Below are positions 47,260 through 47,580 of a stretch of 64,000 bases of DNA, piece after piece; position 1 is the stretch's first letter, and each line of letters begins with the position of its first letter. A program made the position numbers and the translations under genes. The notes under the pieces were generated by a model, which saw only the letters and a list, made by a program, of their open reading frames with translations, made no database searches and was not told where the DNA came from. This DNA comes from Escherichia coli (GTDB lineage Bacteria > Pseudomonadota > Gammaproteobacteria > Enterobacterales > Enterobacteriaceae), in the NCBI RefSeq assembly GCF_003334765.1, contig NZ_QOWT01000012.1. One strand, written 5' to 3'.

Positions 47260-47580
47260 CATCAGGTATACACCGCAGCGCCTGATGCGACGCTGTTGTG
47301 TCTTATCAGGCCTACGAGTTCAGTGCTGTGTGTAGGTCGGATAAGGCGCTCACGCCGCATCCGACAATAACAGCATTGCCTGATGCGACGCTGTTGTGTC
47401 TTATCAGGCCTACGAGTTCGGTGCTGTGTAGGTCGGATAAGGCGTTCATGCCGCATCCGACAATAACAGCATTGCCTGATGCGACGCTTGCGCGTCTTAT
47501 CAGGCCTACGAGTTCAGTGCTGTGTAGGTCGGATAAGGCGTTCACGCCGCATCCGGCAATAACAGCCTTGCCTGACGCAA
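47260..47580. repeat. BIME/REP array, about three tandem ~100-bp units
   Basis: Repeated GCCTGATGCGACGCT...TCTTATCAGGCCTACGAGTTC-GTGCTGTGTAGGTCGGATAAGGCG-TCACGCCGCATCCG-CAATAACAGC units between holC and pepA. Confidence 0.8.

Follow-up and report, generated by a model that had tools for sequence, protein, structure and literature searches.

Bacterial interspersed mosaic elements (BIMEs) are assembled from repetitive extragenic palindromes (REPs). A BIME-2 combines z2 and y REPs in several tandem copies, which contain a short S linker and are bordered by s/l/r linkers; the copy number varies between strains. A BIME-1 consists of z1 and y REPs, is present only once and contains a long L linker, in many cases with a site for integration host factor (IHF) (Ton-Hoang et al., PMC3333891). 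The linkers of BIME-2 vary from locus to locus (PMC3333891). The array described here is located between holC and pepA on contig NZ_QOWT01000012.1 of Escherichia coli (RefSeq assembly GCF_003334765.1), within a stretch of 64,000 nucleotides that is referred to as the window. Its closest described relative is the holC-pepA BIME-2 of E. coli K-12, which is orthologous and shares the locus, the flanks, the Y and Z2 REPs and the S linker, but contains one unit in a spacer of 159 bp, compared to three units in 353 bp in the window. A second related system is REP325/naRNA1-6 (yjdM-yjdN), which is likewise a tandem BIME-2 of Y and Z2 REPs located between genes of the same direction in the 3' untranslated region (UTR) of the upstream gene; the same Rfam model fits both. 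REPIN/RAYT systems, in which a REP-associated tyrosine transposase mobilizes REP doublets (TnpA_REP in E. coli, PMC3333891), also comprise inverted REP pairs with a GTAG tetranucleotide and a stem mismatch, as in the array.

As a whole, the locus is best explained as a BIME-2 of three tandem 96-bp Z2/Y units with fragments at both ends, which is resized by recombination and would act through gyrase and RNA hairpins. This explanation is considered highly probable; the anatomy, family, polymorphism and recombination genealogy of the array are established. Tandem Repeats Finder located the array at 47280-47575, with a period of 96, 3.1 copies, 93% matches, 1% indels and a score of 511. The same family was recovered by a second repeat search with start-to-start spacings of 98, 96 and 96 and degenerate partial copies at both ends (68-70% identity). 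In pairwise comparisons the three 96-bp units are 88-93% identical. The initial annotation, which had described three tandem, near-identical BIME units of ~100 bp between holC and pepA, agrees with these values and with the confirmed flanking genes, and its coordinates (47260-47580) coincide almost exactly with the stretch in which the BIME and non-BIME alleles differ (47258-47580). On the + strand the REPs follow each other in the order Z2(+), Y(-), Z2(+), Y(-), Z2(+), Y(-) and are 92-97% identical to the consensus (blastn-short). The typing was based on consensus sequences of the three E. coli REP types Y, Z1 and Z2. The array comprises the following parts:

47258-47279, degenerate partial unit at the holC-proximal edge, composed of the REP-head fragment cgcatcaggta and an 11-nt linker-like stretch (repeat copy 47231-47326 with 70% identity; alignment)
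47280-47315, + strand, REP Z2-1, gcctgatgcgacgctgttgtgtcttatcaggcctac (92% to the Z2 consensus over 36 nt; RNA hairpin -14.3 and DNA hairpin -8.3 kcal/mol)
47316-47331, tail-to-tail S linker of 16 nt, gagttcagtgctgtgt (read from the sequence)
47332-47365, - strand, inverted REP Y-1 with GTAG at its + strand 5' end (94% to the Y consensus; RNA hairpin -19.2 and DNA hairpin -11.8 kcal/mol)
47366-47377, head-to-head l linker of 12 nt, aataacagcatt (read from the sequence; aligns with the linker of the naRNA4 model)
47378-47413, + strand, REP Z2-2 (REP typing and hairpin; in the Rfam naRNA4 match 47335-47410, 73.2 bits)
47414-47427, S linker of 14 nt, gagttcggtgctgt (read from the sequence)
47428-47461, - strand, REP Y-2 (REP typing and hairpin; in the Rfam naRNA4 match 47431-47506, 82.2 bits)
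47462-47473, l linker of 12 nt, aataacagcatt (read from the sequence)
47474-47509, + strand, REP Z2-3 with the loop cttgcgcg, nearest to the consensus (97% to the Z2 consensus; RNA hairpin -20.5 kcal/mol)
47510-47523, S linker of 14 nt, gagttcagtgctgt (read from the sequence)
47524-47557, - strand, REP Y-3, which forms the first complete hairpin of the pepA mRNA, 23 nt past the pepA stop (97% to the Y consensus; RNA hairpin -15.3 kcal/mol)
47558-47580, l-like linker aataacagcctt and truncated Z2 head gcctgacgcaa, directly next to the pepA stop (array end at 47575; repeat copy 4; partial naRNA4 match 47527-47563)

All six REPs contain the GTAG/CTAC tetranucleotide and an internal stem mismatch, and the tail-to-tail linkers of 16, 14 and 14 nt follow the pattern gagttc[a/g]gtgctgt. 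Each REP folds into a hairpin on its own, with energies of -14 to -20 kcal/mol for RNA and -8 to -12 kcal/mol for DNA. The z-scores of these hairpins range from -2.8 to -5.9 and are mostly near -5, the weakest (-2.8) being that of the DNA fold of Y-3. The fold of the whole spacer reaches -159 kcal/mol (z = -7.8 compared to shuffles) and is closed in its minimum-energy form by the REP-head fragments 47258-47268 and 47570-47580, which are complementary to each other. A longer hairpin can also form between the heads of neighboring Z2 and Y REPs (-23.7 kcal/mol), and the edge 47258-47279 forms a hairpin with the head of Z2-1 (-17.1 kcal/mol); this edge is missing from the boxC-type allele described below (alignment). 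The REP-head pattern matched 16 times in the window, where 0.59 matches are expected. The array is the largest REP cluster of the window, as had been noted, with six full REPs compared to two, or two and a fragment, in the five others (5103-5196, 14147-14231, 20388-20489, 23644-23727 and 33610-33697).

These features identify the array as a BIME-2 in all sequence characters of this type, and no BIME-1-specific feature was found. Inverted Y and Z2 REPs alternate, the tandem copies are connected by short linkers (14-16 nt for S, 12 nt for l), the unit number varies between strains, with one to four units seen, and 6/6 REPs are imperfect palindromes of ~35 nt with a stem mismatch and flanking GTAG/CTAC. 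The array is thus real, already known and a textbook BIME-2: its K-12 ortholog has been catalogued in a published BIME-2 table, in line with the initial view of the array as ordinary biology, and variation of this kind is well known (PMC3333891).

The polymorphism of the locus was assessed in 5,426 complete E. coli genomes, all of which contain it. A BIME allele of one to four units is present in 4,009 genomes, and 1,405 genomes (26%) carry a REP-free, boxC-like spacer of 133 bp. Neither allele was detected at a coverage of at least 80% in 12 genomes, which may harbor insertion sequences within the REPs or other rearrangements. Units were counted in two systematic samples of 59 chromosomes each (n=118); the joining of BLAST pieces yields 100% coverage whatever the unit number. 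Three units were found in 56 of the 118 chromosomes (47%), two units in 23 (19%) and one unit in nine (8%), while the boxC-like allele occurred in 30 (25%). The genomes with one unit are mostly K-12 derivatives, and the spacer of MG1655 measures 159 bp. A targeted search detected a four-unit allele in strain E105 (4.1 copies, 449-bp spacer). The window itself does not represent K-12; Nissle 1917 and strain 300709 match it with 100% identity over 1.8 kb. The strain-variable copy number claimed at the outset was borne out: E. coli alleles contain one to four units and E. albertii three, and 26% of E. coli genomes lack a BIME at this site.

In the boxC-like allele a segment of 102 bp replaces window positions 47258-47580 (E. 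coli CFIAFB20190167, L002 629-761). Its palindrome reads CCCTCTCCC-TTA-GGGAGAGGG-TTAGGGTGAGG and has an upstream inverted partner, CCTCACCCTAA. The boxC-like element is dispersed at low copy number, at a median of six places per genome; a single element occupies the E. coli spacer, and no copy of the motif was found in the 64,000 nt of the window. Both boxC and ERIC are repeat families of E. coli (PMC2267715). In other strains and genera the pepA-holC spacer is taken up by boxC-like or ERIC/IRU-like palindromes, which, like the array, form a strong hairpin just after pepA, but their sequences are unrelated to REP.

A genealogy of the E. coli alleles emerges when the units are numbered in mRNA order, with u1 adjoining pepA. 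The two-unit allele consists of u1 and u3 of the window, each with 100% identity. Unit u2 of the window combines a u3-type 5' end (GTCGG..., Z2 loop ACACAACAG) with a 3' end that carries the l linker of u1, and the single K-12 unit combines a u1-type 5' end (GCCGG..., 14-nt S linker) with a u3-type 3' end. These two chimeras are the reciprocal products expected when the units of a two-unit array are misaligned and recombine in register, and the unit sequences show the one-, two- and three-unit alleles to be linked by in-register unequal recombination. Within a lineage the units are 96-99% identical (E. albertii u1/u2; L019, a further Escherichia locus, u1/u2/u4), compared to 94% at most across lineages, which points to local amplification and homogenization. 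The unit number (one to four) changes by in-register unequal recombination or slippage between units, with TnpA_REP-mediated amplification as a possible further contributor. The TnpA_REP cleavage motifs TGCC|TGAT and GGCC|TAC, the GTAG tetranucleotide and the stem mismatch are all present in the array, and the latter two are features that TnpA_REP needs (PMC3333891). TnpA_REP could contribute, but the observed alleles do not require it: unlike in REPIN/RAYT systems, the allele differences are explained by homologous in-register exchange without a transposase.

The distribution beyond E. coli was analyzed by a pattern scan of 59 pepA 3' ends, with one genome per species. E. albertii harbors three units in a 348-bp spacer, and its array shares the exact S linker ACAGCACTGAACTC with that of E. 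coli. Since the linkers of BIME-2 are locus-specific, the two arrays are orthologous and older than E. coli. Four units with a period of 98 and a different S linker, ACAGAGTATCGAACTC, were found in L019 (NZ_JAATUR010000006.1, deposited as 'E. coli' SCPM-O-B-8794), which represents a divergent Escherichia lineage, as no complete E. coli genome matches it with more than 93.6% identity. Escherichia sp. MOD1-EC7003 contains one unit. The other genera in the scan harbor no BIME-2 at this site; their spacers contain a single REP-like hairpin, a REP pair, or a boxC-like or ERIC-like element. An ERIC/IRU-like element (...ATCCCCAGGAGCATAG...TGACTGGGGTG...) in place of REPs was observed in Salmonella enterica subsp. 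arizonae (L024), in Kosakonia (L056 and L061) and in L011, L047 and L055. Thus at least four unrelated families of palindromic repeats use the pepA-holC spacer across the Enterobacteriaceae. The 286-bp spacer of Pseudocitrobacter faecalis (L017) contains about four tandem boxC-like hairpin units, CCCCTCTCCCTGAGG[G/A]AGAGGG plus a linker of ~40 nt, so boxC-like elements can also amplify in tandem at this site. Each of the 54 Enterobacteriaceae spacers examined (54/54) holds, within a 45-nt window, a hairpin of at least -16 kcal/mol in strength, and the median distance from the pepA stop to the hairpin start is ~21 nt. This fits a role of the hairpin at the 3' end, or simply a permissive site.

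The initial annotation had stated that such arrays bind IHF or gyrase. The part on gyrase is supported by cleavage published for the K-12 ortholog. Gyrase cleavage sites are strongly over-represented in a subset of BIME-2, mostly in Y REPs, which are preferred over Z2, and the BIME-2 signals rise under rifampicin, i.e. when transcription is blocked (Sutormin et al. 2019, PMC6379681). In the excerpts of the supplementary BIME-2 table of that study the K-12 element is listed as '<holC-<pepA' with 83 bp and one unit. According to these Topo-seq data it contains two cleavage sites with ciprofloxacin, one with rifampicin plus ciprofloxacin, none with microcin B17 and two with oxolinic acid, whereas nearly all other BIME-2 rows of the excerpts are without cleavage sites (PMC6379681). 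Gyrase action at this locus is thus documented for the one-unit K-12 ortholog. In the three-unit allele the Y REPs would likewise serve as preferred, transcription-independent cleavage sites, and given the preference of gyrase for Y REPs this allele, with its three Y REPs, would offer up to three sites and is expected, by analogy with K-12, to be bound by gyrase.

At the RNA level the array constitutes the 3' UTR of pepA. In minus-strand order the pepA stop is followed by 23 nt, six hairpins, 52 nt and the holC start. The six hairpins (-14 to -20 kcal/mol, no U-tract) would most likely act as roadblocks for 3' exonucleases that stabilize the pepA mRNA; most likely they would also attenuate read-through into holC-valS, in a leaky manner that depends in part on Rho. 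No terminator-like site, defined as a GC-rich stem-loop followed by a T/U run, was found in 46700-48000, and a consensus scan of the pepA-holC spacer detected no sigma-70 consensus. By analogy with REP325, the array probably stabilizes the pepA mRNA and dampens read-through into holC-valS: REP325 protects the mRNA of the upstream gene and lowers expression of the downstream gene ~8-10-fold, in part via Rho, and tandem gene pairs that are split by REPs show a bias to upstream expression (bioRxiv 10.64898/2026.03.23.713779). Earlier work has tied REPs to 3'-end protection after Rho termination. Liang, Rudd and Deutscher (2015) reportedly proposed that a REP within ~15 nt of the stop codon lowers translation via ribosome stalling; as the first complete REP begins 23 nt past the pepA stop, the array probably falls outside this class.

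The comparison with REP325 also reveals differences. REP325 of MG1655 contains 5.8 units of 100 bp, and its linkers (AACGGTGCCGACT and a tail linker of ~20 nt) are unrelated to those of the array. The Rfam family RF02564 (naRNA4) describes a single Y-l-Z2 unit of REP325, itself a BIME-2, and matches the + strand of the array at 47431-47506 (82.2 bits) and 47335-47410 (73.2 bits), above its gathering score of 59.5. In REP325 the naRNA4 matches are found on the transcribed strand, that of yjdM. In the array the Y-l-Z2 sense, and with it the above-threshold matches, is antisense to the pepA/holC mRNA, while the transcribed strand scores only 51.7-51.9 bits, below the gathering score. Further naRNA4 matches in the window, at 14150-14228 (+, 67 bits) and 20391-20468 (+, 86 bits), correspond to single Y-Z2 BIME-2 units at 14147-14231 and 20388-20489. 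This indicates that the Rfam family is a general detector of Y-l-Z2 pairs and does not represent one small RNA (sRNA) gene.

Several points weigh against the proposed explanation. The analogy with REP325 is inexact, because the array is inverted relative to transcription and its transcribed strand reaches only 52 bits with the naRNA4 model. The effects of REPs on mRNA depend on context, and no genome-wide lengthening of half-lives was seen (bioRxiv 10.64898/2026.03.23.713779). No transcript 3' ends within the spacer are contained in the supplements of RepRanger, Adams et al. and Harris et al.; that of Adams et al. lists only a 3' end upstream of pepA. For co-transcription of pepA and holC there is only a hint in the supplement of Harris et al., which gives the expression level of pepA and the operon label 'pepA:holC:valS' on the terminator after valS. 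The labels REP342 and REP343 were searched for and not found. The gyrase data stem only from a one-unit K-12 derivative. Support for the Y, Z1 and Z2 consensus sequences used in the typing is only indirect and comes from the Rfam alignment and the published BIME-2 listing. Finally, any function of the array must be dispensable or replaceable by another palindrome, because ~26% of E. coli genomes lack a BIME at this locus.

The last point is also the first argument for a serious alternative with respect to function, to which we assign somewhat less than an even chance. According to this alternative, the array is a selfish or neutral repeat in a permissive spacer, spread by TnpA_REP/RAYT and resized by recombination, and gyrase binding and RNA hairpins are by-products. 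It agrees with the BIME-2 explanation on the identity of the array and differs only on whether these effects matter. Besides the 26% of genomes without a BIME, it is supported by the lack of a fixed state among one to four units, by the unrelated repeat families in the same spacer of other genera, by the GTAG and stem mismatch that TnpA_REP needs, and by the lack of a general effect of REPs on half-life (bioRxiv 10.64898/2026.03.23.713779). However, the retention of a strong hairpin near the pepA stop in 54/54 spacers is more than mere tolerance predicts, and according to the table excerpts the K-12 allele belongs to the minority of BIME-2 that are actually cleaved by gyrase (PMC6379681).

A bolder proposal can be made for the pepA-holC spacer. 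It might be a conserved landing pad that always needs a strong palindrome, a role for which different Enterobacteriaceae would have recruited unrelated repeat families (a REP, a REP pair, boxC-like or ERIC-like elements, or a BIME-2), and in Escherichia the BIME-2 unit number (zero to four) might serve as a heritable, recombination-driven dial of pepA mRNA stability, of read-through into the essential genes holC-valS, and of the local gyrase load. This proposal is regarded as rather unlikely.

It is very unlikely that the array encodes naRNA4-like nucleoid-associated RNAs, which together with HU would bridge REP cruciforms and condense the chromosome, as in the bridging model of Qian et al. 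2015 (PMC4550694). The two naRNA4 matches above the gathering score and the potential of each REP for a DNA hairpin (-8 to -12 kcal/mol) are in favor of such a role, but unlike in REP325 these matches are located on the + strand, antisense to pepA-holC. Furthermore, a 2026 preprint from a group that counts an author of the original model among its members reports no compaction of the nucleoid by REP325 and naRNA4 and no REP-REP contacts in Hi-C (bioRxiv 10.64898/2026.03.23.713779).

An assignment to the IHF-binding BIME-1 (RIP/RIB) elements is ruled out at the sequence level. It was suggested only by the general remark on IHF in the initial annotation and by the Y REPs, which, like the inverted-pair design and the extragenic position, are common to BIME-1 (Y - L - Z1, IHF site) and the array. 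However, the partner REPs are Z2 and not Z1, the linkers comprise 12-16 nt, unlike the long L linker and its IHF site, and three copies are present, whereas BIME-1 occur as a single copy (PMC3333891). A core search of 47228-47580 detected no IHF core WATCAANNNNTTR, and the part of the earlier statement that concerned IHF, a BIME-1 trait, was therefore dropped. Non-REP interpretations can be dismissed almost with certainty: the open reading frames overlapping the array (47298-47597 on the + strand, 47312-47545 and 47262-47456 on the - strand; 99, 77 and 64 amino acids) have no NCBIfam match, are built of repeat units and are broken in the one- and two-unit alleles, a CRISPR-like array is contradicted by the repetition of the whole 96-bp unit, which leaves no unique spacers, and a classical intrinsic terminator by the lack of a stem with a T-run.

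The array is located wholly within the 353-bp pepA-holC spacer and is thus extragenic. The gene order corresponds to the valS-holC-pepA-lptFG region of E. coli, in the same orientation as in MG1655. The flanking features are:

43929-46784, - strand, valS, valine-tRNA ligase (NCBIfam TIGR00422, 1304 bits)
46784-47227, - strand, holC, DNA polymerase III chi (NCBIfam NF004345, 337 bits, cut-off 281)
47228-47257, - strand, holC leader block, in mRNA sense ATTTAAATCCACCACAAGAAGCCCCATTT followed by ATG (upstream sequences of 54 loci and alignment)
47581-49092, - strand, pepA, leucyl aminopeptidase (NCBIfam NF002072, 1093 bits, cut-off 826)

The equivalog NCBIfam models of valS, holC and pepA were matched well above their cut-offs, as was that of lptF (49359-50459, + strand), and the name holC is carried by this gene in all matching E. 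coli records. The holC stop and the valS start share one nucleotide at 46784, which makes valS the downstream end of the pepA>holC>valS gene string. The block ATTTAAATCCACCACAAGAAGCCCCATAT-ATG directly 5' of holC is kept in most genera of the Enterobacteriaceae, and the repeat elements always end at its edge. It is wholly replaced where an ERIC-like element has been inserted (e.g. L024, L061). The block could be the ribosome-binding region of holC or part of a promoter; a consensus scan detected no sigma-70 consensus at it. The sole sigma-70-like site in 46700-48000 is located inside holC (46911-46882, - strand; TTGCCA, 18 nt, TAGACT, with TG upstream); it precedes the start of valS by ~100 nt and might serve as an internal promoter of this gene.

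Other Rfam matches in the window include Ysr276, a Yersinia antisense sRNA, at 48340-48534 (+, 175 bits), antisense to the coding region of pepA, which may merely reflect sequence conservation of pepA. The BIME-1-like Z1/Y REP pair at 5103-5196 overlaps a match to the sRNA ES036 (5124-5166, -) and adjoins STnc450 (4987-5044, -); ES036 is thus another case of an sRNA family model on REP sequence. Matches to the sRNA ES239, a Mg2+ riboswitch of the mgtA-leader type and one tRNA are located at 1513-1635, 30645-30760 and 54507-54588.

To the known K-12 element the present analysis adds the type assignment (gyrase, not IHF), the allele frequencies, the boxC-like alternative allele, the presence in E. 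albertii and the unit genealogy. The array had also been proposed as a useful strain marker. This holds insofar as the locus is multi-allelic: it represents a length marker of zero to four units at a fixed position that can easily be typed by PCR across pepA-holC. Its value is limited by homoplasy, because the alleles interconvert by in-register recombination and the same unit count can arise more than once. The repeat is also liable to collapse or expand in short-read assemblies, and it yields spurious open reading frames. If the REP325 model generalizes, the unit number could tune the expression ratio of pepA to holC-valS between strains, and the natural allelic series of zero, one, two, three and four units would be convenient for testing how REP arrays act.

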